From an uncultured Candidatus Saccharibacteria bacterium (GTDB lineage: Bacteria; Patescibacteriota; Minisyncoccia; Phycocordibacterales; UBA5272), in contig CAYWEW010000007.1 in the NCBI GenBank assembly GCA_964457775.1, positions 6,961-70,960 of the forward strand: a stretch of 64,000 bases of DNA, read 5' to 3'. The notes beneath the pieces are model-generated. The model saw only the letters and a program-made list of their open reading frames with translations, searched no databases and was not told the DNA's origin. Each line of letters begins with the position of its first letter. The first letter of the stretch is position 1. The translations under genes and the position numbers were made by a program. Below, one piece after another: positions 8,721-50,004 of the stretch.

Positions 8721-8756
8721 AAATTTAATTTATTAACAGTGTGTTATAATTATTTT

Positions 8757-9704: not shown

Positions 9705-10529
9705 ATGAATACTGTTTCTGTAAGTGGTAAGTGTGATTATCTTGTAGGGAAACCTCTTGGTGGGAATAGTCGGTTCAATTTGTATCGGGCGTCCTCAAAT
9801 GCTTATCCTGATCAAGACTTCATACTCAAGATTGCAAAAACAACTGCGCAAAATCCACTTTTGGAGCGTGAGGCTTTTATTTTTTCGATTATGAATGATG
9901 AAGCTAAACGTCTTGAAGAAGAATATGCGCGGGTTACTGAAGGAAAAGGGTTTCTTAATTATCAGGTTGGTTTCCCTGTTTTGGTCGAAACATTTTTGGC
10001 TGACTCACAGGATAATCGACGGGTTATTGTTGCATCTCTTAGCTCAGAAAATATTAGCAATTTTGTTTCTCTTTCTATGGTGCGTGAACGTGATCGTGTT
10101 CGTGTTGATCCAAAAACAAGTGCCTGGATAATGGGAAAACTTCTCAAGATTCTTGCATTTTGTCACAACCAAAAAATCATAAACAAAAATATTTCTTGTG
10201 GTAATGTTCTCATAGAACGAGGTAATCATCTAGTTACTGTATACGATTGGTCAACTGCTTCAATTCACAACGAAGGTATTCCTCAGGCAGATTCACGAGA
10301 AGAAATAAAGTGCGCTACGCGTGAAGTGGTTCGTGTTTTGGGTGGTAATATCGTTTCGGGAGAAATCCCTGATGATAAACAACTCGTAGATGGTAAGTAT
10401 CAAGAATTTCTCATCAAGCTACTTAGTGGTTCTTATAGCAATGCAAAGGAAGCCCATTCGCGTTTTTACGAAGTTGTAGAAGCAGTCTGGGGCAGAAAGT
10501 TTCACCCGTACGCCTCTTACCCACTGTAA
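9705..10529 (+). CDS. Atypical protein-kinase-like (RIO/Kdo-kinase-like) protein, possibly a pseudokinase
   Basis: FILKIAK (VAIK-like beta3 Lys), LEREAF (alphaC Glu), NKNISCGNVLI (parallels RIO HGDLSEYNILV but with the catalytic Asp replaced by Asn), VTVYDWSTAS (DFG-like). GC about 40%, above the genome background. Confidence 0.5.
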   Translation: MNTVSVSGKCDYLVGKPLGGNSRFNLYRASSNAYPDQDFILKIAKTTAQNPLLEREAFIFSIMNDEAKRLEEEYARVTEGKGFLNYQVGFPVLVETFLADSQDNRRVIVASLSSENISNFVSLSMVRERDRVRVDPKTSAWIMGKLLKILAFCHNQKIINKNISCGNVLIERGNHLVTVYDWSTASIHNEGIPQADSREEIKCATREVVRVLGGNIVSGEIPDDKQLVDGKYQEFLIKLLSGSYSNAKEAHSRFYEVVEAVWGRKFHPYASYPL

Positions 10530-10540
10530 AGGAGAAGGAA

Positions 10541-11650: not shown

Positions 11651-11666
11651 TTTACGCCACATCAAG

Positions 11667-11704
11667 TGTTGGTGGGGTCATGGTTAAAATGGCCCCACCA
11701 ACAT
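11667..11704 (+). other. Strong intergenic hairpin (11-bp GC-rich stem) between the vWA and PurA-like genes, no T-tract
   Basis: tgttggtgggg-(15-nt loop)-ccccaccaaca. Confidence 0.5.
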
Positions 11705-11731
11705 TAACATTAACCAAAAGGGAGGTGAAGA

Positions 11732-13123
11732 ATGGCTATCAAAAAAGCATATACTGTCACTGACCTTGGTGGTGGTGATGGAGGTAAGGGTGGTGTTATA
11801 CACAAGTTGTGTGCACTTCGTCGCCCTCATACAGTTATCAAAGTTGGTGGAGCACAAGGTAGTCATGGTGTTTTTACTTCACATGGTGAAAGATTCAATT
11901 TCAGTCAGTTTGGATGTGGGACATTCAATGGATCAAGGACATTTATATCTAATCGATTTGTTGTCTCACCCGTGGGATTACTTAATGAAGCACATGCGCT
12001 TCGATATGAATTAGGTGTACACGATCCGATGTCACTTCTAACGGTGGATGGTAATGCTCTCTGCACAACCCCATACCACGGGATAGCGTCTCGTCTTAAA
12101 GAACTCGCAAGAAAAGAAAATCCACGAGGAATTGTGGGTGTCGGGGTTGGTGAGGCGTTTATAGATGCCAAACAATTTCCTGAGCTTGCGTTTCGTGCGG
12201 CGGATCTTGGTCGTAAAGACATGAGATCTCGTCTTGCTCAGGTTCGAGCACAGAAGCTAGAAGAAGTTGCTAACGTGTTTGCATCTGGCTTTATGGCGGG
12301 GGATATAGAAGAAGCCAAAGAACAGCTTGATTTAATTCGTAATGATGATTTTCTTGATTGGGCCGCAGAACAATTCGAAGAATTTGCTAAACGTGTTAAG
12401 GTTGTCGATGAAGATTTTATTCGTCGGGAAATTTTTTCACGTGATGGTATTATTGTTTTGGAAAGTTCACACGGCGTTCTCACTGACAGGTATTATGGTT
12501 TTGGCCCTCATACATCACGCTTTCGTACATTGCCCGAAATTACTTCTTGGAGCTTGCTCCGTGATTATGATTATGGTGGTGATATTGTTAAGTTTGGTGT
12601 GACTCGTGCTTATCAAATTAGGCATGGGGCAGGACCACTTGTAACTGAAGACACAGAAATGGCAAATGATTTGCTTCCACATGAAGTGGGCGCAGTCGAC
12701 CGCTATCGTGGAAAGGTTCGTGTTGGTCCACTAGATACAGTTTCTCTTCGTTATGCAATTAATGTTTGTGGAGGTAGTAATGCTTTTGATGCAATTGCTG
12801 TAACGTGGTTTGATAGTGTAATTAGAAAGGGTGAATGGAAGGTTTGTAATCGTTATTATGACGCAACGGACCCGCTATTCTTTAACCAATCTGGGGACAT
12901 TATTGTACGTAGAGGGGATGACGATGTTCAGTTAAGGCGACAAGAAAGTTTAACTAAGGTGCTTAAGTCTTGTCGTCCAAGTGTTACAACGTTTCAATTA
13001 TCAAATGGTACTTCGCAAGAAAAGGCGATTAAACTGTGCAGCGACGTGCTAGCTGAGAGGCTTGGTACACCTGTGCGGATGATATCGTTTGGTCCAACAG
13101 AAGCAGATAAAGTTTGCTTCTAG
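11732..13123 (+). CDS. Adenylosuccinate synthetase (PurA) family protein, divergent paralogue
   Basis: Colinear with PurA. GDGGKGG parallels the P-loop GDEGKGK. VGGAQGSHGV parallels GGHNAGHT. The C-terminal ISFGPTEADKV parallels ISTGPDRTETM. The IMP-binding GTTGRRRR element is altered (VDRYRGKVRVG), as is GTTGRGIGP (NPRGIVGVGVG). Strong AAGGGAGGTG ribosome-binding site. GC about 47%. Confidence 0.8.
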   Translation: MAIKKAYTVTDLGGGDGGKGGVIHKLCALRRPHTVIKVGGAQGSHGVFTSHGERFNFSQFGCGTFNGSRTFISNRFVVSPVGLLNEAHALRYELGVHDPMSLLTVDGNALCTTPYHGIASRLKELARKENPRGIVGVGVGEAFIDAKQFPELAFRAADLGRKDMRSRLAQVRAQKLEEVANVFASGFMAGDIEEAKEQLDLIRNDDFLDWAAEQFEEFAKRVKVVDEDFIRREIFSRDGIIVLESSHGVLTDRYYGFGPHTSRFRTLPEITSWSLLRDYDYGGDIVKFGVTRAYQIRHGAGPLVTEDTEMANDLLPHEVGAVDRYRGKVRVGPLDTVSLRYAINVCGGSNAFDAIAVTWFDSVIRKGEWKVCNRYYDATDPLFFNQSGDIIVRRGDDDVQLRRQESLTKVLKSCRPSVTTFQLSNGTSQEKAIKLCSDVLAERLGTPVRMISFGPTEADKVCF

Positions 13124-13173
13124 TTCTAAGCCGCGAGGAATTTTCTCGCATCAACCAACATTAGGAGAAAAGC

Positions 13174-14301
13174 ATGAACGATATACTGAAGGCCCGTTTG
13201 ATTGAGCTCGGACTCGGTGAAGACCAGGTTGCGAAGCTTGAAGCGGAAGGTGTCAAGGAAGAAGCCGATCTGCAGCTTCTCAATCGGGATGAATTGAAAT
13301 CACTCACCGGTTGCGGACTTGTGGCGGCGGCGAAGATTGCGGCGGCATTTACTGCTACTGTCGTAGCCACTCCGGCCGAGTCTGCGGTTCCGCCGATGGG
13401 GGCAGCAACGTTTGACATCCTCCCCCCGGTTCCGAGTGATGAAGCCTGGATGAATGCTCTCAAGGTTGGCGGCGTGCTCAAGTTCAATTCGAGTACTGTC
13501 ATCGGCACGGTGAGTGCAGCCCTAGCTGCCAAGGTGGGTCTTTACGAACTGCCGGGCAAGATCGGGGTGGCCATGGAAAGGCAGGCGGAGTCGCTCGAAG
13601 AACCTGTCGGTGAGGATTATTACCAGATGCAAAACCTCCTCACCCGTCGTAGCTATGCGGACATCTTTGCAGCAATGCCAGGTGTTGACGGCCGGTTCGC
13701 GACTCAGACGCGCAAGGATGTACTGCTTCGTCGTTTGAATGAGCGGTTGTGGGGCTCATTGAGCTCCTATCAACAACAGCTCAAGCAGTGGGTCGAGGCG
13801 TGGCAACAAGGGATGTCCAACCCTGCGGCCATGATGAGTGTGTTTACTGCAATGGCTGGTGGGGTCGGCGCTGTTCCTCCGGGAATGATGCAACCGCCCC
13901 CGATTGACGTTTTGCGGGATGCTGCTGACGGTGTTGTGAACGACATCAACTACGTGTTTGCCGGAACTGGCATTCCCGTTGCGATGGCGCTTGCATACGA
14001 CGCTCAGCAAATCCGCAAAGTTCTCGAAAACCCGTCGCTTCCTGCGCAAGTCGGAGCAGCGAATCGGGAACAAATGCTGCGCATGCTTGGTGCAGCGGTA
14101 TCGTCGGACTATCCGCGTCTCGAAAAAAACCTGAAGCAGTTTGCGCTCGGCATCATCGAGTTTCAAAATGTGACTTCAGGGCAAGCAGAGCTTCAATATG
14201 TCGTCGCGCTTTATCAGCTTGGTTCCATGATTCCGTGGGACAAGCTTGATACCAGCGACGGCGGTCATTCCGGCCTTGGTCGGGGAGGTAAGAAGCTCTA
14301 A
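13174..14301 (+). CDS. Hypothetical Ala/Gly/Pro-rich protein with an N-terminal SAP/HeH (Rho-N-like) motif
   Basis: ILKARLIELGLGEDQVAKLEAEGVKEEADLQLLNRDELKSL resembles HeH/SAP DNA- or RNA-binding motifs. The rest is low-complexity (MQPPPIDVL, AMAGGVGAVPPG). GC about 57%, the most atypical in the window. Confidence 0.45.
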   Translation: MNDILKARLIELGLGEDQVAKLEAEGVKEEADLQLLNRDELKSLTGCGLVAAAKIAAAFTATVVATPAESAVPPMGAATFDILPPVPSDEAWMNALKVGGVLKFNSSTVIGTVSAALAAKVGLYELPGKIGVAMERQAESLEEPVGEDYYQMQNLLTRRSYADIFAAMPGVDGRFATQTRKDVLLRRLNERLWGSLSSYQQQLKQWVEAWQQGMSNPAAMMSVFTAMAGGVGAVPPGMMQPPPIDVLRDAADGVVNDINYVFAGTGIPVAMALAYDAQQIRKVLENPSLPAQVGAANREQMLRMLGAAVSSDYPRLEKNLKQFALGIIEFQNVTSGQAELQYVVALYQLGSMIPWDKLDTSDGGHSGLGRGGKKL

Positions 14302-14383: not shown

Positions 14384-16399
14384 TTATTTTGGTTTACTTA
14401 ATTGTGGGAGAAATACTCTGTTAATAAATAATTGAGTAGCCAGTCTACGGTACCCAGAGTCATAAAAAGCACTATCACTATCAACGTTATCTGAATGTTC
14501 AGTTTCTAGATTTCCTTTTTTTGGAAAGAAATGTCTATATCCTTTGTGCATTAATCTGTATTGTAAAGTGTCACGCCCGATTTCCTCAGTCCAAACTTTT
14601 TGTGCACCTTGTCCAAGGATATATTTGTCCTCTGAATAAAGATATCCAGGCATTAATTTTTTATATAATTCTTTTATTGTTTCTGTGTCTCCATACCAAG
14701 CTCCGATGAGAGGATGAGTAAGAGTGCTATCGCCAAGTTTGGTGTCAGGATTATCAAAGTCTAAAATGGACATATTGCCGTCATTTTCTTCTAACCAAAA
14801 CTCCATAACCTCACCTTGTATTTTTTCATGAGTGAATGTTTTTTTTATTAAATCTTGGAGATGTTTACGTTTTTCAAATGGAGTACCAGGTTTAACAAAG
14901 ACTGCGATATCAAGGTCTGCTTTACTTTTTGCATATCCTTTTATTCTTGATCCAAGCATTATAACGACCGGATATATTAATTCGGATAATTCTTTATCTT
15001 TTTCGATGGATTCTATTGTTGATGTTATATCTTTAGTATGTATTTCTAAACTGTCCATTCTACCAGTTAAATCAAAATTTAAATTAGGTGATTTTATTCC
15101 AAAACTTGCCAGCTGTTCTTCATTTATAATTTGTAATGAATATAGATGAAGTATCAATTCTTCCGTGGCAGTATGAACATCAGAATCATTTTCAATTAAC
15201 CATAGACTTTTTATTAAGTTCTCATGTTTTTGATAAAATTCCTTAGCTTCAATGTTGCTTGTTTTTACTAAAGTTTCTATTACTTCTTGTATAGATTTAA
15301 TTATAAGTGTGTTTTCTATATTTTCTCCATCAATCGACAATTTATTTTTTATTAATGTTTCAAATTGTTCTGGTCCGAATGATAAAGTGTGAAGTGCTAT
15401 AATTTTTGAGTACCTTTCTAAAAGAAGCCTTCTTTTTTCTTCTTTAAGCCAAAGACCACGACGGTTGGTTGCTTCAGGGTAATCTCTATCAATAATTGCG
15501 GCTTCATTTTCAAAATCTTTTTGCATCATATCTGTAATATTTGAAATATCTGATTTAGGTAAGTCTAGTTTTGTTTCCTGAGAGCTAGATTTGTTTGCTT
15601 GTATGATTCTGGCCATGTTTGAGACCAGGCGATTTTCTGATTTTTCAATGAGGTCGAGGTCGTTTTCATTAATTAATCCCATATCTGCTAATACTGGTAA
15701 TGTATCAGCAATGCTATCCGCGAGTATCTTATCTGTCGTTGTTTCTAGTAAATTAATTATTTCTTCAAAAGATAATATTCCTCTTTTTAAAAATTGAGGA
15801 ATAAGATGCGCAGCTTTAACTACTTCAGGTAAGGGTTCTTTTCTGTACTCAACTTCTGGAATGTTACCATCTATGAAGTCAGCTCTAAGATTGTGTTGAG
15901 TAAGTAAATTCCCCCATCCATTTTTAATGTTAGACGCTAGTTTTGAGTTTGCCTTCGAAAGTTCATCTGTCTTTATTTGTGAATTTAAGTTGGGAAGAAG
16001 TTCAAAAGGCAAGTAAAGTAAAATTTGAGCATTATTTTTATCTTGTTCTAGCAAAAGAGAAAGGGTGTCGTAAAGTTCAACTAAATCTTTTTCCTGAAGT
16101 GTCTCATTTTTTATACTATCCCAGATATCTGTAGTTGCTTCTGGAATAAGATTATATAAATGACTAAGTTCTTTAGAAAGCCTTCGTCTTGTCCTTGCTT
16201 GCTCTTGCAGGTTTTTGTTATTTCGCACTTCTTCTGTCCAAGGTACATTTGTTGTTTCTATATACAATAATGATTCGGTGGCAGGGGAGGTGAGCACTAT
16301 TTTCGGAGATGATTCCAATGTTGCAAATGGCTGCTTGTTTTCCATAGTATTACATATATTATACAAGACAAGACTAGAGATGACTATTATCCTTGACAT
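14384..16399 (-). CDS. Large protein (671 aa) with an alpha-helical N-region and a C-terminal minimal nucleotidyltransferase (Pol-beta superfamily) domain
   Basis: NTase signature GSRIKGYAKSKADLDIAVFV (G-S-x9-13-D-x-D). Transcribed divergently from pncA and shares its operator-bearing intergenic region. Confidence 0.55.
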   Translation of the reverse strand: MSRIIVISSLVLYNICNTMENKQPFATLESSPKIVLTSPATESLLYIETTNVPWTEEVRNNKNLQEQARTRRRLSKELSHLYNLIPEATTDIWDSIKNETLQEKDLVELYDTLSLLLEQDKNNAQILLYLPFELLPNLNSQIKTDELSKANSKLASNIKNGWGNLLTQHNLRADFIDGNIPEVEYRKEPLPEVVKAAHLIPQFLKRGILSFEEIINLLETTTDKILADSIADTLPVLADMGLINENDLDLIEKSENRLVSNMARIIQANKSSSQETKLDLPKSDISNITDMMQKDFENEAAIIDRDYPEATNRRGLWLKEEKRRLLLERYSKIIALHTLSFGPEQFETLIKNKLSIDGENIENTLIIKSIQEVIETLVKTSNIEAKEFYQKHENLIKSLWLIENDSDVHTATEELILHLYSLQIINEEQLASFGIKSPNLNFDLTGRMDSLEIHTKDITSTIESIEKDKELSELIYPVVIMLGSRIKGYAKSKADLDIAVFVKPGTPFEKRKHLQDLIKKTFTHEKIQGEVMEFWLEENDGNMSILDFDNPDTKLGDSTLTHPLIGAWYGDTETIKELYKKLMPGYLYSEDKYILGQGAQKVWTEEIGRDTLQYRLMHKGYRHFFPKKGNLETEHSDNVDSDSAFYDSGYRRLATQLFINRVFLPQLSKPK

Positions 16400-17287: not shown

Positions 17288-19150
17288 ATGAAAAAAATTT
17301 ATACTAACAATTTAAAAATATCAGTTGCGCAAATGAGTCCAACACCAATGAATGTTGTGGCTAATTTGTCAGCAATTAAAGACTATATAAATAAAGCTAA
17401 AAATACTGGTTCACAAGTAGTTGTCTTTCCTGAGCTTTGTGTTTCTGGATATGTACTTGGTGATAGATTTGAGTACAGCGATTTTATAAATGAATTACAA
17501 GAAGCAAATGATACTATTCGTGAAATGAGTGAAGGTATTGTTGTTGTATGGGGGAACATTGTAAGTGACACTACTAAGATTGGTGAAGACGGACGCATTA
17601 GAAAATATAATGCTGTACTTATTGCGTACAATGGAAAGTGGGTAAGTAACGGTGTACTTCTAGGATTTTTACCAAAGAATAATCTTCCTAAATATCGTAT
17701 CTTTGATGATTCAAGACACTTTTATCCTGCATATAAATTAGTCAAAGAAATGAATTTAGAGTTGAACGATTTTTTTAAAGCTTTTGAAATAAATATTGAT
17801 GGTGTAATTTACAAAATAGCTTTGGCTATTTGTGAAGATATGTGGGAGGATGAATATTCAATAAAATTATCTAAGATATATCAAAAACAAAATATTGATT
17901 TGCTTGTCGACGTATCTGCCTCACCTTGGACACTGGGTAAGTGGCACGCACGTGAGAATATGCTTGTGAAAAGGGTTAAAGATTTGAATGCGCCAATGCT
18001 ATATGTTAATTGTGTTGGGCTACAAAATAATGGCAAGAATTTAATCTGGTTTGATGGAGCTTCTGTATTCGTTAAGGAGGATGGAGAATTTGTTTTTCGT
18101 GCAGAGAATAATATAAATAATTTGTATTCTTTTTCTGTTGCTGATTTAAAAGCAAATAATTCTTATAAACAAAAAAGTGAAGTAGAAGAACTTTATTCCA
18201 ATATCACAAGTGCAATGTATGAGTTCTATAAAGATTTTAATAAAGTAGTTGTTGGATTGTCAGGTGGCATAGATTCAGCACTTACACTTGCTTTACTTTG
18301 TGCTGTTTTACCAAAAGAAAAAATTCTTACAGTTAATATGCCAACTAGATTTAATTCTTCCACTACTAAAGATTTGGCTAAGAAATGTGCAGAGAATTTT
18401 GGTGTTGAGTATAAAGTAGTAGCAATTGATGAATTATTCGAAGCACAATGTAAAGTACTTTTGGATTCAGGTTTATCATCACTTAATACTTTAGTAAAAG
18501 AGAATATTCAAGCTCGTCTTCGTTTACAACAACTCGCAACTATTTCGGCATCTTATGGTGGGGTGTTTACCAACAATGGAAACAAGACAGAGGTATCCCT
18601 TAATTACTTTACACTTTATGGAGATGCAGGCGGATCATCAGCATTTCTTGGAGATCTTTGGAAAGGACAAGTGTATGAATTATCTAAATATATTAATTTA
18701 ATTAATAACAAAGAACTTATTCCAGAAGGAATTATAAATATTATTCCAAGTGCTGAACTTTCAGAAAATCAAAATGTAGACGAAGGGAAAGGGGATCCAA
18801 TCTTTTATGAATATCACGACAAATTACTTTTGGCTTTTGTTGAATCTCGTATAGGTATTACGGATATTCTTGTGAAATATGAGGCAGGCACCCTTGAAAA
18901 ATATTTGAAGTGTGAAGAAGGTACAATCGCAAAATATTTTAAGACAACAGCTGAATTCATTAATAATCTAGAATGGGCATGGAATGCATACAACACAGAA
19001 TATAAACGAGTACAGTTACCACCAGTATTTCTAGCATCTCGCAGAGCTTTTGGTTTTGACAGAAGAGACACTATCGCACCAGCTTTTTTCTCCCAAGAAT
19101 ATGTAACACTAAAAGAAAAACTCCTTACTTCATCTGATACTGCTACATAA
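17288..19150 (+). CDS. nadE: Glutamine-dependent NAD+ synthetase (N-terminal CN-hydrolase/nitrilase domain plus C-terminal NadE domain)
   Basis: PP-loop VVVGLSGGIDSA and an N-terminal carbon-nitrogen hydrolase fold. 620 aa. Confidence 0.9.
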   Translation: MKKIYTNNLKISVAQMSPTPMNVVANLSAIKDYINKAKNTGSQVVVFPELCVSGYVLGDRFEYSDFINELQEANDTIREMSEGIVVVWGNIVSDTTKIGEDGRIRKYNAVLIAYNGKWVSNGVLLGFLPKNNLPKYRIFDDSRHFYPAYKLVKEMNLELNDFFKAFEINIDGVIYKIALAICEDMWEDEYSIKLSKIYQKQNIDLLVDVSASPWTLGKWHARENMLVKRVKDLNAPMLYVNCVGLQNNGKNLIWFDGASVFVKEDGEFVFRAENNINNLYSFSVADLKANNSYKQKSEVEELYSNITSAMYEFYKDFNKVVVGLSGGIDSALTLALLCAVLPKEKILTVNMPTRFNSSTTKDLAKKCAENFGVEYKVVAIDELFEAQCKVLLDSGLSSLNTLVKENIQARLRLQQLATISASYGGVFTNNGNKTEVSLNYFTLYGDAGGSSAFLGDLWKGQVYELSKYINLINNKELIPEGIINIIPSAELSENQNVDEGKGDPIFYEYHDKLLLAFVESRIGITDILVKYEAGTLEKYLKCEEGTIAKYFKTTAEFINNLEWAWNAYNTEYKRVQLPPVFLASRRAFGFDRRDTIAPAFFSQEYVTLKEKLLTSSDTAT

Positions 19151-19212
19151 CAGGATGCAGTGTCAGATGAACCGTAGTTCTTTGTTAATTTTAAGGAAAG
19201 GAAGGGAATCAA

Positions 19213-20523
19213 ATGAACCCGAAACTTCGTGAGCTTATTGAAGAAACGATTAGGATTGTTCGCAGTAAGGAATTTGTTCCGCCTGTTCAAAATGTAACAG
19301 ATATTGATGTTTACAAATTATTCATGATGCAATTTATCAGGCATTATTACCCAGATGTTGAAGCAACTTTCAAGTTGACCGTAAGAGATAAAGCGATAAG
19401 ACTTTGGAAGTATGTTGACCAAGATGAGCTTCGTCAATCTTTTGACCACATGAGGTCACTTTCGCTACGAAAGACTGACCGATATTATCTTCGTGGCATG
19501 GATCTCTACGACAAGTACATGTTTAGCGAAGATTTTCTTTCTTCTTTCGGAAGTTTTCATCTTCCGGAGTACAAGATTGACCACAAAGATGGGATTATGG
19601 ATGTTCAATTTCCTGGTCTGTGGTCAGAGAGCTCTCTTTGGGAAACTGGCGGAATGGCTGTTATTTCTGAGTTGTACTATCGCGGATTTTTGAAGGAGCT
19701 TACTGATGATCAAATACGTGACCTCTATATAGTTGCGGATAACAGACTTCAGAATGATCTACTTCGAATCAAAAAGAATCCTTGGGTTCGATTTGCTGAT
19801 TTCGGACATCGTCGTCGTCATAGTTTTCTTTGGCAGAAGTATGTCATTGGTGAAACCAAACGTGTTCTCGGTGATCAGTTCATCGGTACCTCGGATGTCT
19901 GGATGGCTTTTCATTATGACTTGAACGTGATTGGTACGAATGCTCATGAATTGCCAATGGTAGTAACGGCAATTGCTAAGAGCGATGAGGAAATGCGTCA
20001 AGCTCAATACCAAGTTCTTTGGCAGTGGCAAGAGATGTACGGCAAGGGTCTACGCATCATTCTTCCTGACACTTATGGGTCTGAGCAGTTTTTTGCAAAT
20101 GCACCTAAGTGGTTATTGGAGTGGCGTGGTCAAAGGCAGGATTCTGGAGACCCTATTACTGAAATTGATAGGTACAAGGATTGGCTCATTTCTAATGGGG
20201 TTAATCCCAATGAAAGAATCTCTCTCCCTTCCGATGGTCTTGATGTTTCGTCGATGATTTCAATCGCGTCGCATTATGAAGGTAAGCATGTAACTGGTTT
20301 TGGTTACGGTACGGGCCTCACCAATAACTTCAATGGCATTCTACCTGGGAATGAAGATTTTCGGTCATTCTCAATGGTGATAAAAGCCTATTTGGCAAAT
20401 GGTAATCCTTGCGTGAAGTTGCCAAACGATATCAATAAGGCAACAGGGGAAGCTTCTGCAAAAGAGCGCTATCTCAGAGTCTTTGGTCGACAGCATCGAG
20501 TCGAAAGAGAAGTGTTTGTTTGA
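19213..20523 (+). CDS. pncB: Nicotinate phosphoribosyltransferase (PncB family)
   Basis: DVYKLFMMQ, FADFGHRRRHS (the FxDFGTRRR motif), IGTSDV and GTNAHE motifs of the type II PRTase NAPRTase family. Confidence 0.8.
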   Translation: MNPKLRELIEETIRIVRSKEFVPPVQNVTDIDVYKLFMMQFIRHYYPDVEATFKLTVRDKAIRLWKYVDQDELRQSFDHMRSLSLRKTDRYYLRGMDLYDKYMFSEDFLSSFGSFHLPEYKIDHKDGIMDVQFPGLWSESSLWETGGMAVISELYYRGFLKELTDDQIRDLYIVADNRLQNDLLRIKKNPWVRFADFGHRRRHSFLWQKYVIGETKRVLGDQFIGTSDVWMAFHYDLNVIGTNAHELPMVVTAIAKSDEEMRQAQYQVLWQWQEMYGKGLRIILPDTYGSEQFFANAPKWLLEWRGQRQDSGDPITEIDRYKDWLISNGVNPNERISLPSDGLDVSSMISIASHYEGKHVTGFGYGTGLTNNFNGILPGNEDFRSFSMVIKAYLANGNPCVKLPNDINKATGEASAKERYLRVFGRQHRVEREVFV

Positions 20524-20532
20524 AAAACTTTG

Positions 20533-20567
20533 AATCCGGTCAATATATTTTGACCGGATTTTTCTTT
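20533..20567 (+). terminator. Rho-independent terminator after pncB
   Basis: aatccggtcaa-tatattt-tgaccggatt followed by tttcttttat. Confidence 0.7.
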
Positions 20568-20588
20568 TATCTGGGTATTTAATTTTAC

Positions 20589-20628
20589 TTGCATTATATT
20601 TTATATAGTGTATAATGAACACTATATA
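20589..20628. promoter_or_regulatory. nadM promoter TTGCAT-16-TATAAT with the palindrome TATATAGTGT-ATAATGA-ACACTATATA (candidate NrtR operator 4) overlapping the -10
   Basis: Same TAGTGT-N7-ACACTA core and the same TTGCAT -35 as the pncA promoter. Confidence 0.5.
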
Positions 20629-20639
20629 ATTAATAAACT

Positions 20640-21554
20640 ATGAAAATAATCAAAAATATCAATCAATCAAAACAAAAGACCGTCGGAGTTGTAATCGGTA
20701 GATTTCAGCTTGCTAATTTGCACGAAGGTCACAAACACTTAATTGATACAGTTAAATCAAAGAATGATGAGATTTGTATTTTGCTTGGTTCATCAGGCGG
20801 GGCACCAACTAAGAGGAATCCACTTCCTTTTTCCATAAGAAAAGAAATGATTCAGGATTTATATAAAGATGCTAAGGTTTTTGAAATAGTTGATTCCAAA
20901 AATAAGTGGTCAGAGAATGTCGATAAAATTCTGAAGAAGAATTTTAAGAATAAAAATATTCGATTATACGGATCTAGAGATTCATTTTCCAAGTGGTACT
21001 TCGGAGAATTTCCTTTTGTCTATGTAAAAGAGATGCACGATATATCTGGAACAGAAATTAGAAATAGTAATATTTTACCAAAAGAAAAAGAAAGTTTTCG
21101 TCTCGGTATGATTGAAAGTCACAAGGTTAGATATCCTATTTCTTATCAAACAGCTGATATTGTTTTATTTGATGAAAAGAAAAGCAAAATTGTTTTAGGC
21201 CAAAAGGAGGATGTAAAAACTTGGTTCTTTCCTGGGGGCTTCGTTGATCCAAGTGATCTTTCTTTAGAAGATTCTGCAAAAAGAGAGTTAAGTGAAGAAG
21301 TGGTAAATATTGAAACAAAAGACGATGTTAAATATTTGGGCTCAATTAGAGTGAACGACCACAGATATAGAAATGAGGAAGACAAGATTATGACAAGTCT
21401 TTTTCTTATTAAATATAAAAGCGGAAAGATAAAAGCAGGAGATGATTTAAAAAGAGTAAAATGGTTTTCTTTAAAAGAGGCCAAGGAAGTCATTTCTGAC
21501 ACTCATACACCATTATTAAATATGTTATTAGAAAAGTACAGTAATGTATTATAA
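20640..21554 (+). CDS. nadM: Bifunctional NMN adenylyltransferase (NadM-type) / Nudix ADP-ribose pyrophosphatase
   Basis: N-terminal GRFQLANLHEGH (the HxGH nucleotidyltransferase motif). C-terminal Nudix box FPGGFVDPSDLSLEDSAKRELSEEV. Confidence 0.8.
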   Translation: MKIIKNINQSKQKTVGVVIGRFQLANLHEGHKHLIDTVKSKNDEICILLGSSGGAPTKRNPLPFSIRKEMIQDLYKDAKVFEIVDSKNKWSENVDKILKKNFKNKNIRLYGSRDSFSKWYFGEFPFVYVKEMHDISGTEIRNSNILPKEKESFRLGMIESHKVRYPISYQTADIVLFDEKKSKIVLGQKEDVKTWFFPGGFVDPSDLSLEDSAKRELSEEVVNIETKDDVKYLGSIRVNDHRYRNEEDKIMTSLFLIKYKSGKIKAGDDLKRVKWFSLKEAKEVISDTHTPLLNMLLEKYSNVL

Positions 21555-22266
21555 TATAGCAATGAAAAAGTTTTATATTATTGGGATTAATAACGAGGAA
21601 ATAAAAGATGAGTTTATTGGTCTTGGCTTTGTTTTGGATAAAGATAATCCCGATTTTGTGATTAGTTTTGGTGGGGATGGTACTTTACTTAAAAGTGAAT
21701 TTGAATATCCAGGTATACCAAAATTATTTTTGAAAAATACTAATGTTGGTAAATTGGCTCAAAATAAAAAGAATCAAGAAATAATTGATGGTTTTGTTAA
21801 TGGCCATTTTTTTATAAAAGAATATAAAAAATTAAAGATTACATTAAATCACGATAAATTTTTAATTGCATGTAATGAAATTAATATACATAATGCCAAT
21901 CCTCGCTCTGCAATAAGATTTAAAATTAAAGTTGATGATGATTATCTTCATCATGAGCTTATCGGAGACGGGGCGATTATTGCAAATGCTCTTGGTTCAA
22001 CTGGTTATTATAAATCGATTACCGACAGTTATTTTGAAGTTGGTATTGGTGTGGCATTTAATAATTCAACAGAAGCTGCTGACCACGTAGTGTTAGATGC
22101 GAAGAGAAAGATAAAGATTGAAATTACTCGTGGACCAGCAGAAGTGTTTGCAGATAATCAAGAAGAGTTTTTGAATGCAAAAGAAGGGGATGTTTTAGAA
22201 ATTGGAGAGATGGAAGAAACAGTAAAGCTTATCAGAATTCATGATGAAATTTTGGAGCAGGAATAG
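21544..22266 (+). CDS. nadK: NAD kinase (the start may be the internal ATG at 21565)
   Basis: GGDGT motif (ISFGGDGTLL) and GDGAIIANALGSTGYYKS (the DGxxxxTPTGSTAY motif). Confidence 0.8.
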   Translation: MYYNIAMKKFYIIGINNEEIKDEFIGLGFVLDKDNPDFVISFGGDGTLLKSEFEYPGIPKLFLKNTNVGKLAQNKKNQEIIDGFVNGHFFIKEYKKLKITLNHDKFLIACNEINIHNANPRSAIRFKIKVDDDYLHHELIGDGAIIANALGSTGYYKSITDSYFEVGIGVAFNNSTEAADHVVLDAKRKIKIEITRGPAEVFADNQEEFLNAKEGDVLEIGEMEETVKLIRIHDEILEQE

Positions 22267-22392: not shown

Positions 22393-23133
22393 ATGTCTTT
22401 TTCTGCTAAAGAAGATTCAGAAGAAAATGATACCCCTTGGCCAGTTAGTGCGGTCGGAGCTTTCTTCTTCATTGGTGGCCTAGTTTACTTTTTTCCACAC
22501 CTCATTAAGCCATTTGGTTTCTTTGAGTTTTGGACAATAAAAGGCAATTTCTGGAATGCGGTCAAAGAAGCGTGGCCGTGGTATGCCTGGGGTTTTGGTG
22601 CCACGTTTATGTTTTTACTTTTTCGCAACGACAATATATCCACGCATAATAGCCCAATGGACAAGTTCATCAGTGGTGTATTAATTAGTGTTTGGGCTGG
22701 AGTTGCAGAAGAGATGGCATTTCGATGGTTATTTTTCTTTTCTGCCATTGTAATATTACCAGTATCAAACTGGATCTTTGGTGGCTGGTTTGGTCTCGAA
22801 CTGATTCGGTGGCTATACGAAGATGCTCTCTGTCCAATTGCAAACTTTTTCACTTTTGGATACCTTGAGCCTTATCTCATTAATGGATATGGTTGGGTAA
22901 TTGGTGCAGCTGTTATTAGTTCAAATGGTCGTTTCCGTAACGGTCATGCATACCAGGGAACACTAGGGTTAGTTAACTCTTGGTTTTTTGGAATGTACAT
23001 GCACTGGATGGTGTTCAAGTATGGCATTTTGCCGGCTATCTTTGTTCATTTTTTGTATGACTTTATTATCTTCACTATGGAAGCGATTAGTTCCATTTTT
23101 GATAAAAGTCGTTTTCAATCTCGTGCCCGGTAG
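22393..23133 (+). CDS. CPBP-family (CAAX protease / bacteriocin-processing) intramembrane metalloprotease
   Basis: Motif 1 VAEEMAFRW (EExxxR), motif 3 HFLYDF (HxxxD/N), multi-TM. Confidence 0.65.
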   Translation: MSFSAKEDSEENDTPWPVSAVGAFFFIGGLVYFFPHLIKPFGFFEFWTIKGNFWNAVKEAWPWYAWGFGATFMFLLFRNDNISTHNSPMDKFISGVLISVWAGVAEEMAFRWLFFFSAIVILPVSNWIFGGWFGLELIRWLYEDALCPIANFFTFGYLEPYLINGYGWVIGAAVISSNGRFRNGHAYQGTLGLVNSWFFGMYMHWMVFKYGILPAIFVHFLYDFIIFTMEAISSIFDKSRFQSRAR

Positions 23134-23145
23134 TAGAAATTCATT

Positions 23146-23199
23146 GGCTATTGAGTCTGACACATTACAAGTGTCGCACTCAATAGCCTTTTTATTTTT
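23146..23199 (+). terminator. Strong rho-independent terminator (10-bp outer stem with a nested inner stem) followed by tttttattttt
   Basis: ggctattgag-(tctgacacattacaagtgtcgca)-ctcaatagcc, then a T-run. Confidence 0.75.
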
Positions 23200-23405
23200 C
23201 TGTAAAATTATATTACTTGATGATTGTAAAAATACAATCTATTTTCCAAATACCAATATTGTGATTGTCGCGGAGAAATAAATAGCCTTTTGAGGTACAT
23301 TGAATTGATTTTAAAATGATTAATTGCTAGTATTCGAATCGGAAACAACTTCGTTCTTTTTAGTAACATAGACAGAAATAGACATTTAAAACCAGGGAGA
23401 AAATC

Positions 23406-23714
23406 GTGGAAAATCCAAAAGATGTGGTTAGGAAGCTTAATTTGTACATACTTCAAGTCATTTCTCAGTTGGCAAGAAATGATATTGCTGACACCATACT
23501 TCGATTCGATATTTCAAGAGAAGTTGCTGAATCTTTGGCAAAATTGAATACTGCCGAACTTGACGATCTGTCAATGTCACCAGTTTTTATGTTCGACATT
23601 AATCAAAAAAGTATTTTGGATGCTTTGAAAGACAGAGAACAAGGACATGGTTATAGAAGTTTACATAATTCTATAGTTGGTGTTTGTGCATTGATTAATG
23701 ATGAGGATAAATGA
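23406..23714 (+). CDS. flhD: FlhD-like transcriptional activator subunit (GTG start)
   Basis: 102 aa. KLNLYILQVISQLARNDIADTILRFDI...LAKLNTAELDDLSMSPVFMFDIN is colinear with E. coli FlhD ([27 protein letters not shown]...[25 protein letters not shown]). The 4-nt overlap with flhC gives the operon arrangement. Confidence 0.6.
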   Translation: MENPKDVVRKLNLYILQVISQLARNDIADTILRFDISREVAESLAKLNTAELDDLSMSPVFMFDINQKSILDALKDREQGHGYRSLHNSIVGVCALINDEDK

Positions 23715-24271
23715 TGAGAAAAACTACCCCTTATCAACAAATGATTGACACATCGTTAGCGGTAAGACTGATTCAGCTTGGAGCCAGGTTAATAGTTCTT
23801 TCAAATGAGCTGAATGTTTCCAAAGAAAAGTTGCTTGCGCTATACAAAGAAGTTAGCGGTGGAGATTCATCACCAAAAGGAATGTTACCATCTTCCGTTG
23901 ATTGGTTTGTGACATGGCAACCATGCGCACACTCTTCTTTGTTCATGGCGTACTACAAATTTTTTGAATCAACAACGACATTGTCTAAAGTAGAGTTATT
24001 GATAAAATCTTATGAAATGTATCTTGAGGAAGTTTCTCGACATAGGAATTATGATGAGGAACAACCAGTTTTATCTATAACTAGAGCGTGGATGATGTTG
24101 AGGATGATAAATGTAAATCACCCATTGCTTGTACTAACAAGATGCAAAAATTGCATTGGAAATTTTGTCACCAGAAGTAATGAGGGTGATAAGTTTTACG
24201 AAAACTATGTTTGTGGTTTCTGTAACAAACCAATAAGAGCAGGGAAAACTGAAAAATATTCCTTTGTTTGA
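23711..24271 (+). CDS. flhC: FlhC-like transcriptional activator subunit with the zinc-ribbon cysteines
   Basis: 186 aa. LGARLIVLSNELNVSKEKLLALYKEVSGGDSSPKGMLPSSVDWFVTWQPCAHSSLF parallels E. coli FlhC [55 protein letters not shown]. The four Zn-ligand Cys (CKNC...CGFC) are conserved. Confidence 0.8.
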   Translation: MMRKTTPYQQMIDTSLAVRLIQLGARLIVLSNELNVSKEKLLALYKEVSGGDSSPKGMLPSSVDWFVTWQPCAHSSLFMAYYKFFESTTTLSKVELLIKSYEMYLEEVSRHRNYDEEQPVLSITRAWMMLRMINVNHPLLVLTRCKNCIGNFVTRSNEGDKFYENYVCGFCNKPIRAGKTEKYSFV

Positions 24272-24313
24272 TTTTGGAACAGAGGACATAAGAAATTATG
24301 CCCTCTTTTTGTT

Positions 24314-25138
24314 TTATATTTTTTTCTTCAATTCCAGAATATTTTTAAAAAGATGTGCAACTGTAAGTGGTCCAACACCACCAGGGACAGGAGTAATTAT
24401 ACTTGCAATTTCTTCGCACGACGGGTGAAAGTCTCCAGCGAGCACACCAGCTTGTTCGCTTGTGCCAGCGTCAATGAGTATTACTCCGCCTTTGAAAAAT
24501 TCTTTTTTAAGATGATGAGGTTTACCAATTCCTGAAATAACAATATCTGCTTCTTTGTATAATTTCATTTTAGTCTCTTCTTCAGTATTTATATCTATAA
24601 TATTTGGATATGCCCCTTGATGCCTGAACCAGGCTGTAACAGGTAGACCAACAAGTATTCCTTGGCCAACAATAACTACTTTTTTATGTGTAATGTGAGT
24701 GTCGGTATCTTTTAAAATATGAGCAACAGCTAAAGCAACAGGAGGGGCAGGATTGTTATTTTTAATAAATGACACCCAAGCATCTTTTCCTAAAACATCA
24801 GCATCTAATTCTTTTGATATAGTATCAAGTACTCGTTTAGTGTTATATGAAGAAGGTAGTGGTAATTGAACAATAAGAGAGGTACATTCCTTTTTATTTA
24901 TTATATTTTGTATTTCACAAATTAAATTTTCTTCACCGATAGATTCTGGAAAATTGTATTCACTTATTGAGACATCAACAGCTTCAGCAAACTTTCTTTT
25001 AATTTTAATAAATGAAGCAATGCTTGGATGTGTTGAAACAGAAACAATGGCAAGTATTGGCTTATCTTTTAAATTATAAACTTCTAATTTTAGTTGTTCT
25101 TGTAGGAGGAGTGAAGCTTTTTTGCCATCGTATATCAT
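24314..25138 (-). CDS. folD: Bifunctional methylenetetrahydrofolate dehydrogenase / methenyl-THF cyclohydrolase
   Basis: 274 aa. The NAD(P)-binding VVIVGQGILVGLPV and overall FolD architecture. Confidence 0.9.
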   Translation of the reverse strand: MIYDGKKASLLLQEQLKLEVYNLKDKPILAIVSVSTHPSIASFIKIKRKFAEAVDVSISEYNFPESIGEENLICEIQNIINKKECTSLIVQLPLPSSYNTKRVLDTISKELDADVLGKDAWVSFIKNNNPAPPVALAVAHILKDTDTHITHKKVVIVGQGILVGLPVTAWFRHQGAYPNIIDINTEEETKMKLYKEADIVISGIGKPHHLKKEFFKGGVILIDAGTSEQAGVLAGDFHPSCEEIASIITPVPGGVGPLTVAHLFKNILELKKKI

Positions 25139-32936: not shown

Positions 32937-35789
32937 ATGAAGTTATACGACCATAAAAATAATGACGCTAAGTGGCAGAAGGATTGGGAAGATAAAAAAA
33001 TATATCAAACTCCCGTCAAACCAAACGGCAAGAAGTCATACATTCTAGACATGTTCCCATATCCATCAGGAGACGGCCTACATGTTGGTCATCCAAAAGG
33101 ATATATTGCAACAGATATTTATTCGAGATTTAAGCGTATGAATGGCTATGACGTGCTGCACCCAATGGGATGGGATGCCTTTGGTCTTCCCGCAGAACAA
33201 TATGCTATCAAAAATAAAATACATCCTAAAATTGCAGTAGAAAAAAATGTTGCAATGTTCAAGCAACAACTTTCTCATCTTGGTCTTAGTTATGATTGGT
33301 CACGAGAAATAGACACAACAGATCCTAATTTTTATAAATGGACTCAGTGGATTTTTACAAAGTTATACGAGAAGGGTTTAGCTTATGAAAGTAATGAACC
33401 AATCAATTGGTGTCCAACATGTAAGACCGGTCTTGCGAATGAAGATGTTAATGCAGATGGGACGTGTGAGAGATGTGATACTAAAGTAGAGAAGAAACCA
33501 ATTCGACAGTGGGTGCTTAAGATTACTGATTATGCAGATAGAATGCTTTCGGATTTAGACACTCTCAATTGGCCTGAAGGGGTGAAGACTGCTCAGAAGA
33601 ATTGGATTGGACGTAGTGAAGGTGCAGAATTTGATTTCAAATTAGTTGACGCACCACAGGAGTCAGTGAGAATTTTTACAACTAGAGCAGATACACTTTT
33701 TGGTGCAACGTATGTAGCTATATCAGCCGAACTAGCTCAATCATGGTTGAAGATGAATTTTAAAATGAGTGAAGATGTCAAGAAGTATATTGTAGCTACA
33801 TTGGAAGATCAAAAGAAAGAAAATGATTATTCTGTCGTTCCTGAAAAAACAGGAGTGTTCACGGGCGTATATGCAATTAATCCTGTAACACAAGAAAAGC
33901 TTCCAGTATGGATTGCGAATTATGTAATGGGTGGAGTTGGCACTGGTGCAATCATGGCCGTACCAGCTCACGATGAACGTGATTATGAATTTGCAAAGAA
34001 ATATAATCTACCAATTAAGCAAGTTGTTCTTCCAGTTTTTGTCGATAAAGTTAATCCACCTAAAGTAGACGCTGAAGATACTGTTCGTCATGGTGTGATT
34101 GTTCTTGTTAAACACTGGTCCGAAGAAAAGTATTTGATTGATTATTCTCCGAAGTTTAATTGGAAGTGTTTATTCACAGGTGGTATAGATGAAGGGGAAG
34201 ACCCACTGGATTCTGCTGTTAGAGAAATAAGAGAAGAAACTGGGTATCAGAATATAAAGGAAGTAAAATATATTCCACTTGAACATGTTGATAAATTCCA
34301 TGCACCACATAAAGGGGTTAATAGAGTTGCATATCAAAAAAATATCTTTATTCAGCTTCTAGATGGAGAAACAAAAGAAAGAACAGAAGAAGAAAAAGAG
34401 CTTCACCATATTTCTTGGTTAACAAAAGAAGAGATGAGAAAAACGATTTCACTTCCAAATCATCTTTTTATTTTTGAGACGGCATTACAAGATGGAAATG
34501 TTTTGACTGAAGACGGTATTCTTTCTAATTCTGGTAATTATTCTAATTTGGAATCAAAAGAAGTAAGAGAAAAAATCATAAAAGATTTTGGTGGTAAAAA
34601 AGTTGTAAAGTACAAAATACAAGATTGGGTATTTGCTCGTCAAAGATATTGGGGTGAACCATTTCCTGTTGTTCGTGATGAAAATGGAAAAGTGTATATG
34701 GTTGACGAAAGTGAACTTCCAGTACTACTTCCAAATGTAGAGAGCTATGAACCAACAGATACTGGAGAGTCACCACTTGCAACTATTACGGACTGGGTAA
34801 ATGTAAAAGGCTTTATTACTGACAAGGGGACATTCAAACAATCAGCTGACGGAAAAGTATTCACTCGCGAAACAAACACAATGCCACAGTGGGCAGGTTC
34901 ATCATGGTACTATCTTCGCTTTGCAGATCCGAGAAATGATAAAGCACTTATTGATCCAGAGATAGAAAAGTCGTGGTTACCAGTTGATGTATATGTTGGA
35001 GGGGATCATGCAACAAGACATCTTATCTATGCGAGATTTTGGCACAAATTTTTGTATGACATTGGAGTCGTGTCATCAATCGAACCATTTTCACGTTTAG
35101 AGTTCTTAGGATTTATTCTTGCTGAAGATGGACGTAAGATGAGTAAGAGATGGGGGAATATTATCAATCCAGACGATGTGGTAGCCGAGCATGGAGCAGA
35201 CACACTTCGAGTGTATGAAATGTTCATGGCACCATTTGAACAAACTGCCTCATGGAGTACATCAAGTATTAAAGGTTCAGATAAATTTTTGGACAGAGTG
35301 TATTCACTTCAATCAAAAATTGTAGAGAAAAGTAATGTGACCAATGTACTTCATAAGACAATTAAAAAAGTCACAGAAGATATTGAGAGTTTTAAGTTCA
35401 ACACAGCAATATCTCAGATGATGATATTAACTAATAGTATGGAAGATGGGGAATTTACAAAAGATGATTACAGTACTTTCTTGCAAATTTTAGCCCCGTT
35501 TGCACCACATCTTACAGAGGAAATTTGGTCCAAATTAGGGCAAAATACATCAATTCATAGCTCGGTTTGGCCATCATTTGATGATAAATATCTAGTCACA
35601 AATGAGGTAACTATAGCAATTCAGATAAGCGGAAAGATGAGGGGAACAACTATTACAACACGAGATTTGTCAGATGACAAGATGATAGAATTGGTAAAAA
35701 CCCTTGAAATATATAGGAAATATGTCGGTGATGCCGTTCCTAAAAAAATAATAGTAATTCCAAATCGGCTAATTAATATAATAATTTGA
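32937..35789 (+). CDS. leuS: Leucyl-tRNA synthetase carrying an inserted Nudix-hydrolase domain
   Basis: HIGH (HVGH), KMSKS (RKMSKRWGN), the CP1 region and AHDERDYEFAKKYNLPI. A Nudix box GGIDEGEDPLDSAVREIREETG is inserted upstream of the conserved leucyl-specific segment ILSNSGNY...YKIQDW, which aligns to E. coli VLFNSGEF...YRLRDW. Confidence 0.95.
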   Translation: MKLYDHKNNDAKWQKDWEDKKIYQTPVKPNGKKSYILDMFPYPSGDGLHVGHPKGYIATDIYSRFKRMNGYDVLHPMGWDAFGLPAEQYAIKNKIHPKIAVEKNVAMFKQQLSHLGLSYDWSREIDTTDPNFYKWTQWIFTKLYEKGLAYESNEPINWCPTCKTGLANEDVNADGTCERCDTKVEKKPIRQWVLKITDYADRMLSDLDTLNWPEGVKTAQKNWIGRSEGAEFDFKLVDAPQESVRIFTTRADTLFGATYVAISAELAQSWLKMNFKMSEDVKKYIVATLEDQKKENDYSVVPEKTGVFTGVYAINPVTQEKLPVWIANYVMGGVGTGAIMAVPAHDERDYEFAKKYNLPIKQVVLPVFVDKVNPPKVDAEDTVRHGVIVLVKHWSEEKYLIDYSPKFNWKCLFTGGIDEGEDPLDSAVREIREETGYQNIKEVKYIPLEHVDKFHAPHKGVNRVAYQKNIFIQLLDGETKERTEEEKELHHISWLTKEEMRKTISLPNHLFIFETALQDGNVLTEDGILSNSGNYSNLESKEVREKIIKDFGGKKVVKYKIQDWVFARQRYWGEPFPVVRDENGKVYMVDESELPVLLPNVESYEPTDTGESPLATITDWVNVKGFITDKGTFKQSADGKVFTRETNTMPQWAGSSWYYLRFADPRNDKALIDPEIEKSWLPVDVYVGGDHATRHLIYARFWHKFLYDIGVVSSIEPFSRLEFLGFILAEDGRKMSKRWGNIINPDDVVAEHGADTLRVYEMFMAPFEQTASWSTSSIKGSDKFLDRVYSLQSKIVEKSNVTNVLHKTIKKVTEDIESFKFNTAISQMMILTNSMEDGEFTKDDYSTFLQILAPFAPHLTEEIWSKLGQNTSIHSSVWPSFDDKYLVTNEVTIAIQISGKMRGTTITTRDLSDDKMIELVKTLEIYRKYVGDAVPKKIIVIPNRLINIII

Positions 35790-49984: not shown

Positions 49985-50004
49985 ATAGACAAGCTGTTAG
50001 TATA

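Follow-up and report, generated by a model that had tools for sequence, protein, structure and literature searches.

FlhD and FlhC homologues in a contig of a Patescibacteria/CPR bacterium: a divergent, insertion-marked gene pair with a probable non-flagellar role

FlhDC is among the best-studied of bacterial master regulators and, to our knowledge, is accepted as being confined to Beta- and Gammaproteobacteria and tied to flagella. A literature search found no explicit published statement of this restriction, and no mention of FlhDC together with Patescibacteria or the Candidate Phyla Radiation (CPR). An overlapping pair of genes resembling flhD and flhC is nevertheless present at positions 23406–24271 of a 64 kb stretch of contig CAYWEW010000007.1 (the whole of this stretch is referred to as the window), in which the neighbouring genes are CPR-like. 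This raises the questions of whether the pair is genuine, whether it belongs to the genome in which it was assembled, how it was acquired and what it could regulate. The best overall explanation, to which we give a probability of roughly 0.7, is that the pair encodes a functional FlhD/FlhC-type factor of a CPR lineage, derived from one old horizontal acquisition and controlling a non-flagellar regulon.

Both open reading frames (ORFs) were found where the initial annotation, made from the sequence alone, had placed an overlapping FlhD/FlhC pair, and both were identified by Pfam and PDB matches and by AlphaFold2 (AF2) models. The flhD homologue occupies positions 23406–23714 of the forward strand, has a GTG start and encodes 102 aa. 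The flhC homologue (23714–24271, same strand) encodes 185 aa, or 186 aa if translation begins at ATG 23711; ATG 23714 is favoured by public gene calls and by the relatives (MRNT...). Hidden Markov model searches gave scores above the Pfam gathering cutoff of 27 bits for both proteins, with 194.6 bits for FlhC against PF05280 (E=1.5e-57, profile positions 7–172 of 173) and 36.7 bits for FlhD against PF05247 (E=5.3e-9, profile positions 9–95 of 102); FlhD from a related locus, L001, scored 38.3 bits against the latter profile. In PDB sequence searches, FlhC matched 8j56_C of Cupriavidus necator (E=3e-37, 42 % identity) and 2avu_E of Escherichia coli/Salmonella (E=4.5e-35, 38 % identity), while the best match of FlhD was 8j56_A (E=1.4e-6).

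Structural comparison gave the same assignment. The FlhC model (mean local confidence, pLDDT, 89; predicted template modelling score, pTM, 0.84) was matched by Foldseek to 8j56_C (E=1.3e-13, TM 0.93, rmsd 1.7 Å) and 2avu_E (E=6.9e-13, TM 0.91), with TM-scores normalised to the target, and the first match beyond these two had an E-value of 0.55. The FlhD model was built from an alignment of four sequences, the number of proteins returned by a word-indexed search, and had a pLDDT of 73 and a pTM of 0.63. PDB ranks 1–10 for this model were all FlhD chains (8j56, 2avu, 1g8e, 4es4 and 5hxg; probability 0.94–1.0), with target-normalised TM-scores of 0.52–0.79 but E-values of 0.03–0.3, and an all-helical FlhD fold is therefore predicted with moderate confidence. 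All four of the cysteines initially proposed as zinc ligands of FlhC (C145, C148, C168 and C171 in the 186-aa numbering) align with the E. coli ligands C137, C140, C157 and C160; in alignments of 15 and 42 sequences three of these columns are invariant, and conservation reaches at least 90 % in the fourth, which holds the second cysteine of the C-terminal CxxC. The PKGMLP, TWxP and TRAW motifs of E. coli/Salmonella FlhC are also shared. FlhD is colinear with E. coli/Salmonella FlhD, other proteobacterial FlhDs and those from eight CPR-type loci, and the IHxxI histidine is kept here and in most of them. As in the class I flagellar activator FlhD4C2 of E. coli/Salmonella (2AVU, 1G8E), flhD precedes flhC in a two-gene order. 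These results confirm that the window pair consists of genuine members of the FlhD and FlhC families.

The host of the pair was assigned through housekeeping proteins, because the 64 kb window contains neither rRNA genes nor genes for ribosomal proteins, and its one tRNA gene is for tRNA-Tyr. DnaE (58822–61947, reverse strand) is 80–87 % identical to proteins labelled by NCBI as Candidatus Paceibacterota, Pacebacteria or Nomurabacteria, with one labelled 'Gracilibacteria', and RNase J groups with Paceibacterota proteins in a cluster at 90 % identity. In the NCBI taxonomy, Candidatus Paceibacterota leads to the phylum Minisyncoccota, formerly Patescibacteria/CPR. The gene content of the window is likewise CPR-like, with DUF5671, RNase J, a sigma-70 region 4/HARE-HTH protein, a compact UvrC and NAD-salvage genes. 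Judged by these protein comparisons, the host is a Patescibacteria/CPR bacterium of Paceibacteria type, in agreement with the non-proteobacterial, CPR-like host suspected at the outset and at odds with a reduced proteobacterial symbiont. The composition of the pair fits this host: the GC content is 34.0 % for flhD and 36.0 % for flhC as compared with 35.6 % for the window, and the GC content at third codon positions (GC3) is 0.26 and 0.32, respectively, as compared with 0.24 for eight housekeeping ORFs. The pair is thus compositionally ameliorated, as had been proposed.

Contigs derived from metagenome-assembled genomes may be chimeric, and one FlhC match labelled 'Ignavibacteria' shows that bins can be mislabelled, so the pair could be an artefact, with a proteobacterial fragment mis-assembled or mis-binned in a CPR contig, or a recent transfer in the course of decay. 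However, GC and GC3 are like those of the flanks, and the junctions are repeated in independent assemblies, with the same flhDC locus and flanks present in two Logan assemblies (L002 and L003). Synteny extends across diverged genomes, the nearest proteobacterial FlhC is about 52 % identical, and the ORFs are intact, with their motifs, a promoter and a terminator. An artefactual or decaying origin is effectively refuted by these observations.

The gene order around flhDC has been retained in several relatives. The order in L007 is clpB...flhD-flhC-parB-like-folD(-)-mliC/DUF333-pyrF-rnhB-msrA-hit-holin-DUF5671-leuS, where (-) marks the reverse strand; in L010 it is NAD kinase-flhD-flhC-parB-like-folD(-)-rnhB-msrA, and in L011 it is FAD-binding protein-M32 peptidase-flhD-flhC-folD(-)-mliC-rnhB-msrA. 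The NAD kinase gene of L010 directly adjoins flhD. In the window, an NAD cluster (17288–22266; nadE, NAPRTase, NadM-Nudix and NAD kinase) ends immediately before a CAAX-protease gene and flhDC, and an NrtR-type regulator with a Nudix-related winged-helix domain is encoded about 8 kb upstream of this cluster (8739–9407).

The flhDC ORFs are intact in all copies, with relatives at 50–70 % identity. In comparisons of the window with its relatives, synonymous sites have reached saturation (proportion of synonymous differences, pS, 0.55–0.78), and the non-synonymous divergence (dN) was therefore compared with that of FolD instead of calculating dN/dS. The dN of FlhC was close to that of FolD in the comparison with L010 (0.24 and 0.21, respectively) and somewhat higher in the comparison with L011 (0.41 and 0.29), while FlhD evolves somewhat faster (0.30–0.62). 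On this sequence evidence, flhDC appears to be conserved under purifying selection and to be working. The FolD-like divergence, the amelioration and the synteny together indicate an old single acquisition followed mainly by vertical descent, and not a recent or decaying transfer.

FlhC proteins of this type form a distinct group. The top matches to the window protein were 17 clusters at 90 % identity (P0001–P0017; 49–100 % identical to the query), followed by FlhCs of Rhodocyclaceae at about 50–52 %. Among 394 fetched proteins, a 4-residue insertion, EVSRH(R/K)NYD, was found only in P0001–P0017, P0121 and P0254 (a fragment), and most insertion-bearing FlhCs have small further insertions beside the zinc knuckle. 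In the window FlhC the insertion (SRHRNYD) lies in a loop between two helices (108–121), in a high-confidence region of the AF2 model. The protein differs from E. coli/Salmonella FlhC by this 4-aa loop insertion and by 1–3-aa insertions near the zinc knuckle. The closest named FlhCs are betaproteobacterial (C. necator 8J56 and Rhodocyclaceae P0019–P0038; 50–52 % identity), and 8J56 is the best structural match for both window proteins; betaproteobacterial flhDC, in contrast, is found in high-GC genomes, lacks the SRHRNYD insertion and has motAB-cheY directly behind it (L013).

A neighbour-joining (NJ) tree was reconstructed in numpy from 87 sequences and 177 columns, with 500 bootstraps. In this unrooted, star-like tree, 15 insertion-bearing FlhCs were monophyletic in 85 % of bootstraps, while their sister was P0014 in 31 %, P0014 with P0302 in 19 % and the Rhodocyclaceae group in only 10 %. 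Phylogenetic comparison with proteobacterial sequences therefore recovers a distinct, insertion-marked clade but does not settle its sister group or its donor. Together with the syntenic retention and the FolD-like divergence, the monophyly of this clade supports the initial suggestion of an ancient acquisition that was repurposed. In the proposed history, an ancestor of one CPR sublineage would have received flhDC in a single horizontal transfer, with a proteobacterium as the most likely donor, and the pair would then have been inherited mostly vertically under purifying selection.

Transfer from Proteobacteria to CPR is favoured because the diversity of proteobacterial FlhC is much greater. 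An exhaustive HMMER search over 1.84e9 50 %-identity representatives gave 384 FlhC representatives at E<=1e-3, of which the CPR clade accounts for one (P0009). In PLSDB (72,556 plasmid records), all 181 of the 181 FlhC-bearing replicons belong to Beta- or Gammaproteobacteria (Ralstonia, Burkholderia, Cupriavidus, Escherichia, Salmonella and others), in agreement with the accepted distribution. These counts bear on an alternative origin, in which CPR-type FlhDC is an older general regulator that was co-opted by Beta- and Gammaproteobacteria, or in which both came from a third lineage. Such an origin would be consistent with a CPR clade that is nested in no sampled proteobacterial group and has no settled sister, and whose internal depth (51 % identity between the window and P0013) equals its distance to Rhodocyclaceae (about 51 %). 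A non-flagellar pair, P0302 (L021/L022), is placed near the base of the clade, and FlhDC is established to be missing from most flagellated bacteria and hence to be a late addition to the flagellar hierarchy. However, the CPR clade is so small a share of FlhC diversity, and the plasmid-borne copies are so uniformly proteobacterial, that this origin is improbable, and the apparent depth could be produced by fast CPR evolution alone in an unrooted, star-like tree. An origin from phages or mobile elements was rejected, as no FlhC was found in INPHARED (50,697 phage records) or IMG/VR, no PADLOC match was obtained and no mobility gene is adjacent to the pair.

The P0302 protein belongs to a second type of flhD-flhC pair, located at L021:7715-8555 and L022:2836-3697. 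Its FlhC is 34 % identical, lacks the insertion and is encoded at a GC content of 50 %, and the pair is preceded by TraG-like, holB, frr and rseP(M50) genes, while its surroundings contain no flagellar genes. This pair hints that FlhDC is more widespread outside Proteobacteria than has been recognised.

If the pair is functional, the question of what it regulates follows. None of the 44 window ORFs of at least 150 aa matched a flagellar, chemotaxis or type III secretion family, consistent with the absence of visible flagellar genes reported initially, and no mot, flg, fli or che genes were found in the window or in L001–L012 and L015–L023. Searches by tblastn with MotA and MotB gave no match in any CPR-type locus, while the same searches located these genes directly behind flhC in the proteobacterial controls L013 and L014 and in 10 of 18 Joint Genome Institute (JGI) loci. 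Of 19 control loci from proteobacteria, 12 have motA immediately behind flhC. The JGI loci came from a metagenome scan with the CPR FlhC alignment, which returned only high-GC proteobacterial flhDC-motAB loci, and these were used as controls. The host phylum is itself described as non-flagellated: flagellar-assembly and chemotaxis genes are missing from Patescibacteria and electron microscopy shows no flagella (PMC7137472), their genomes carry 0.7 +/- 1.2 motility/chemotaxis genes as compared with 17 +/- 18 in other phyla (PMC7137472), and the cultured Minisyncoccus archaeiphilus has genes for type IV pili, whereas none for flagella were detected (PMC12281837).

The pair could still be an ordinary flagellar master regulator whose flagellar genes lie elsewhere in this CPR genome, given that only part of the genome has been seen, that class I flagellar regulation is the only capacity in which FlhDC is known and that the patescibacterial mean of 0.7 +/- 1.2 motility/chemotaxis genes is not strictly zero. 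This is very unlikely in view of the lack of any flagellar, motor or chemotaxis gene in the 64 kb window or in the roughly 90 kb covered by related CPR-type loci, of the motAB genes directly behind proteobacterial flhDC and of the absence of reported flagella in Parcubacteria/Patescibacteria. In a phylum without flagella, the regulon of flhDC should be non-flagellar. Such a regulon is plausible because FlhDC is reported to control many targets unrelated to flagella in E. coli (PMC9962212) and Yersinia (PMC2262085). The pair most likely acts as an FlhD4C2-like transcription factor whose regulon is non-flagellar.

The signals around the genes are those of a self-contained operon. The flhD gene is directly upstream of flhC, with one promoter and one terminator, and nine related loci have the same arrangement. 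The preceding CAAX-protease-like gene (22393–23133) ends in an intrinsic terminator at 23146–23199 of the forward strand, in which a hairpin (23146–23188) is followed by TTTTTATTTTT. The hairpin has a folding energy of -26 kcal/mol (z=-9.3) and none of 200 shuffled sequences was equally stable; folding, together with the T-run behind the hairpin, thus bears out the strong upstream terminator described initially, which isolates flhDC from transcription of the CAAX-protease-like gene. Folding was used because a generic promoter/terminator scanner missed this long-stem structure.

The predicted flhD promoter (23305–23333, forward strand) consists of a -35 element TTGATT (23305–23310), a 17-nt spacer and an extended -10 element TGcTAGTAT (23325–23333). 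It matches the consensus at 8 of 12 positions, below the threshold of the same scanner, which missed it, and we infer it from conservation: TTGATT...TGnTAGTAT recurs upstream of flhD in seven CPR-type loci (the window, L001, L007, L010, L011, L015, where the -35 is weaker, and L018). Transcription is predicted to start near 23340, giving a 5' untranslated region (UTR) of about 65 nt. The initial annotation had described a leader of roughly 200 bp and separate regulation of the pair. The pair's own promoter and terminator uphold the separate regulation, but the leader is shorter than described, as the 272 bp spacer contains both the promoter and the UTR of about 65 nt. In E. coli the flhDC leader is long and heavily regulated, in contrast to the short UTR predicted here.

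Within the predicted flhD UTR, a GTTCTTT heptamer (23353–23359, forward strand) is located 19–21 nt past the -10 hexamer and spans about +13 to +20 of the transcript. It is present at an equal offset in the same seven loci and takes the form GTACTTT in L004. The heptamer is part of no conserved palindrome, and the consensus RNA structure of the UTR contains 0 predicted pairs across 7 loci; GTTCTTT could act as an operator or be recognised by an RNA-binding protein. A Shine–Dalgarno sequence, AGGGAG (23394–23399, forward strand), was read from the sequence 6 nt before the GTG, and a GGAG-type sequence is found at the corresponding position in all relatives. Depending on the flhC start, the two genes overlap by 1 nt (TGATG) or 4 nt (ATGA). 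The overlap is 1–29 nt in every CPR-type locus, in contrast to a gap of 31 nt in the proteobacterial control L013, and implies translational coupling.

Behind flhC, a hairpin GAGGACATAAG...TTATGCCCTC followed by TTTTTGTTTT is located at 24282–24316, between the convergent flhC and folD genes (folD, 24314–25138, reverse strand). It folds with -12.5 kcal/mol on the forward strand (z=-3.2) and -14.6 kcal/mol on the reverse strand (z=-6.4), and a counterpart hairpin with a T-run is present behind flhC in every related locus. This hairpin terminates flhDC and probably acts in both directions.

The operon signals suggest that flhDC would be transcribed as a self-contained bicistron, with a consensus-like sigma-70 promoter, a UTR of about 65 nt and its own terminator, and that coupled translation would favour a fixed FlhD:FlhC stoichiometry. 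From homology to E. coli FlhD4C2, we infer that FlhC would bind zinc through its four cysteines and that FlhC and FlhD dimers would assemble into an FlhD4C2 heterohexamer, a DNA-wrapping complex that would activate transcription by sigma-70 RNA polymerase.

A further gene recurs beside the pair in relatives. Five CPR-type loci encode a ParB-like protein of 317–323 aa behind flhC (L001:10665-11636; L004:8148-9110; L007:10670-11623; L010:2330-3289; L023:747-1274). The protein has a ParB_N domain in which GESRWRA replaces the GERRxRA box for cytidine triphosphate (CTP), passes TIGR00180 (64.8 bits, cutoff 58.45) and has ParB, Spo0J, KorB and Noc as its best PDB matches; about 140 C-terminal residues are without a family match. 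The gene is always located past the terminator of flhC, where it is preceded by a conserved extended -10 of its own, TGnTAGATT, with no clear -35. Promoters with an extended -10 and no clear -35 are common among those that depend on an activator. This gene is set apart from those of ParB/KorB-type CTPase clamps by its linkage to flhDC instead of parA. The window, L011, L015 and L018 do not contain it, and a tblastn search of the whole window gave no homologue. As flhDC is kept where the parB-like gene is missing, the ParB-like protein is dispensable for FlhDC retention. In several relatives it is the leading candidate partner or target of FlhDC.

Its recurrence raises the possibility that FlhDC and a ParB/KorB-like CTPase-fold protein make up a functional three-gene module, from which the window organism has lost the ParB partner. 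The module could serve in long-range silencing or activation or in nucleoid or segregation control, or it could be the relic of a mobile element. Loci with the parB-like gene are spread over most of the clade, as far as P0014, its deepest member, and the gene follows flhC with its own extended -10 in all five. We nevertheless consider such a module rather unlikely, since FlhDC has been conserved in four loci that lack the gene, no interaction between ParB and FlhDC is known, and neither PADLOC defence matches, FlhC homologues in phages or IMG/VR nor adjacent integrase or mobile-element genes were found.

Several observations weigh against the preferred explanation, that of a functional CPR factor of FlhD/FlhC type acquired once, long ago, with a non-flagellar regulon. 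Neither protein reaches its NCBIfam equivalog cutoff (FlhC, 191.2 bits against 216 for NF009365; FlhD, 32.6 bits against 90 for NF002783), and two residues around E. coli Cys65 are missing from the CPR FlhDs, including that of the window. Only family-level names are therefore appropriate, for a divergent subfamily that is not an orthodox equivalog, and functional equivalence with FlhDC is not guaranteed. The loci L018, where flhDC is found between sodA-like and aminotransferase genes that neighbour each other at the start of the window, and L015, where it adjoins clpP, RNase Y and HU, show placement elsewhere, and some intragenomic or lateral mobility of flhDC may have occurred. The split among candidate sister groups means that donor and direction of transfer are indicated by the far greater proteobacterial diversity only. 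The search for flagellar genes covered the 64 kb window, out of a contig of 121 kb, and about 90 kb of related-locus fragments. Finally, FlhDC boxes were sought with the E. coli consensus (PMC9962212), a 42–44-bp element of two inverted halves, AAYGSSNNAAATAGCG-N10-12-CGCTATTTNNSSCRTT, for which the specificity of the host protein may differ. In the window, 10 boxes had at least 13 of 16 core positions as compared with 6.4 +/- 2.4 in Markov shuffles, which is no enrichment in a search that had no positive control, and 1 had at least 14 of 16 as compared with 0.3. No enrichment was detected in 88 kb of CPR-type loci either, where the matches were at unremarkable sites.

Other features of the window were recorded alongside the pair. 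Positions 10000–14000 form a GC-rich island (46–49 % as compared with about 35 % elsewhere), in which an adenylosuccinate-synthetase-like ORF (11732–13123) is very divergent (80 bits for TIGR00184, whose cutoff is 395.55) and is flanked by ORFs without Pfam or NCBIfam matches (10541–11650 and 13174–14301). The island may be foreign DNA, or the PurA-like enzyme may have a different function. The following ORF (14384–16399, reverse strand; 671 aa) is on the strand opposite to all its neighbours, lies in a region with a local AT skew of -0.18 and has no Pfam match, apart from which a stretch at residues 478–520 weakly resembles an MntA-like nucleotidyltransferase (23 bits). Leucyl-tRNA synthetase (32937–35789) has a NUDIX hydrolase domain (residues 388–502) inserted after the editing domain; precomputed annotation of the LeuS fragment in L007 contains no NUDIX match. 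The adjacent gene (35837–36865) encodes the 342-aa sigma-70 region 4/HARE-HTH protein, in which N-terminal region 4, matching that of RpoD and MzaA, is combined with a HARE-HTH/RNAP-delta-like domain; it scores 38 bits against a cutoff of 42 for TIGR04567 and has an unusual transcription-factor architecture. At about 52.4 kb the genes change from forward to reverse orientation, and the maximum of the cumulative GC skew lies at about 50–52 kb; the region 50000–53000 may be a replication terminus or a strand-switch point.

While FlhDC itself is well known, what is new is a divergent subfamily of it that bears an insertion and has become fixed in a CPR lineage without flagella; such proteins are likely under-annotated because the NCBIfam equivalog cutoffs miss them. 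The pair adds one transcription factor to the regulators of CPR bacteria, which are very few. The pair also documents what appears to be an old gene transfer between CPR and Proteobacteria, which would fit their co-occurrence in groundwater, and the recurrent linkage to a ParB/KorB-like gene provides a concrete, testable hypothesis. A bolder proposal, to which we give little credence, is that FlhDC is not intrinsically flagellar and that the CPR clade, often with a ParB/KorB-like clamp, puts the FlhD4C2 scaffold to an independent use that may be ancestral. If true, the scaffold would be a general transcription or chromosome-organising factor that was later co-opted for flagella by Beta- and Gammaproteobacteria, and it could control cell-cycle or host-attachment genes in a flagellum-less episymbiont. 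For the explanation favoured here, the constrained clade in a flagellum-less phylum indicates that the FlhD-FlhC scaffold can persist for a non-flagellar purpose, and CPR flhDC would offer a natural system for asking about the roles of FlhDC apart from flagella.

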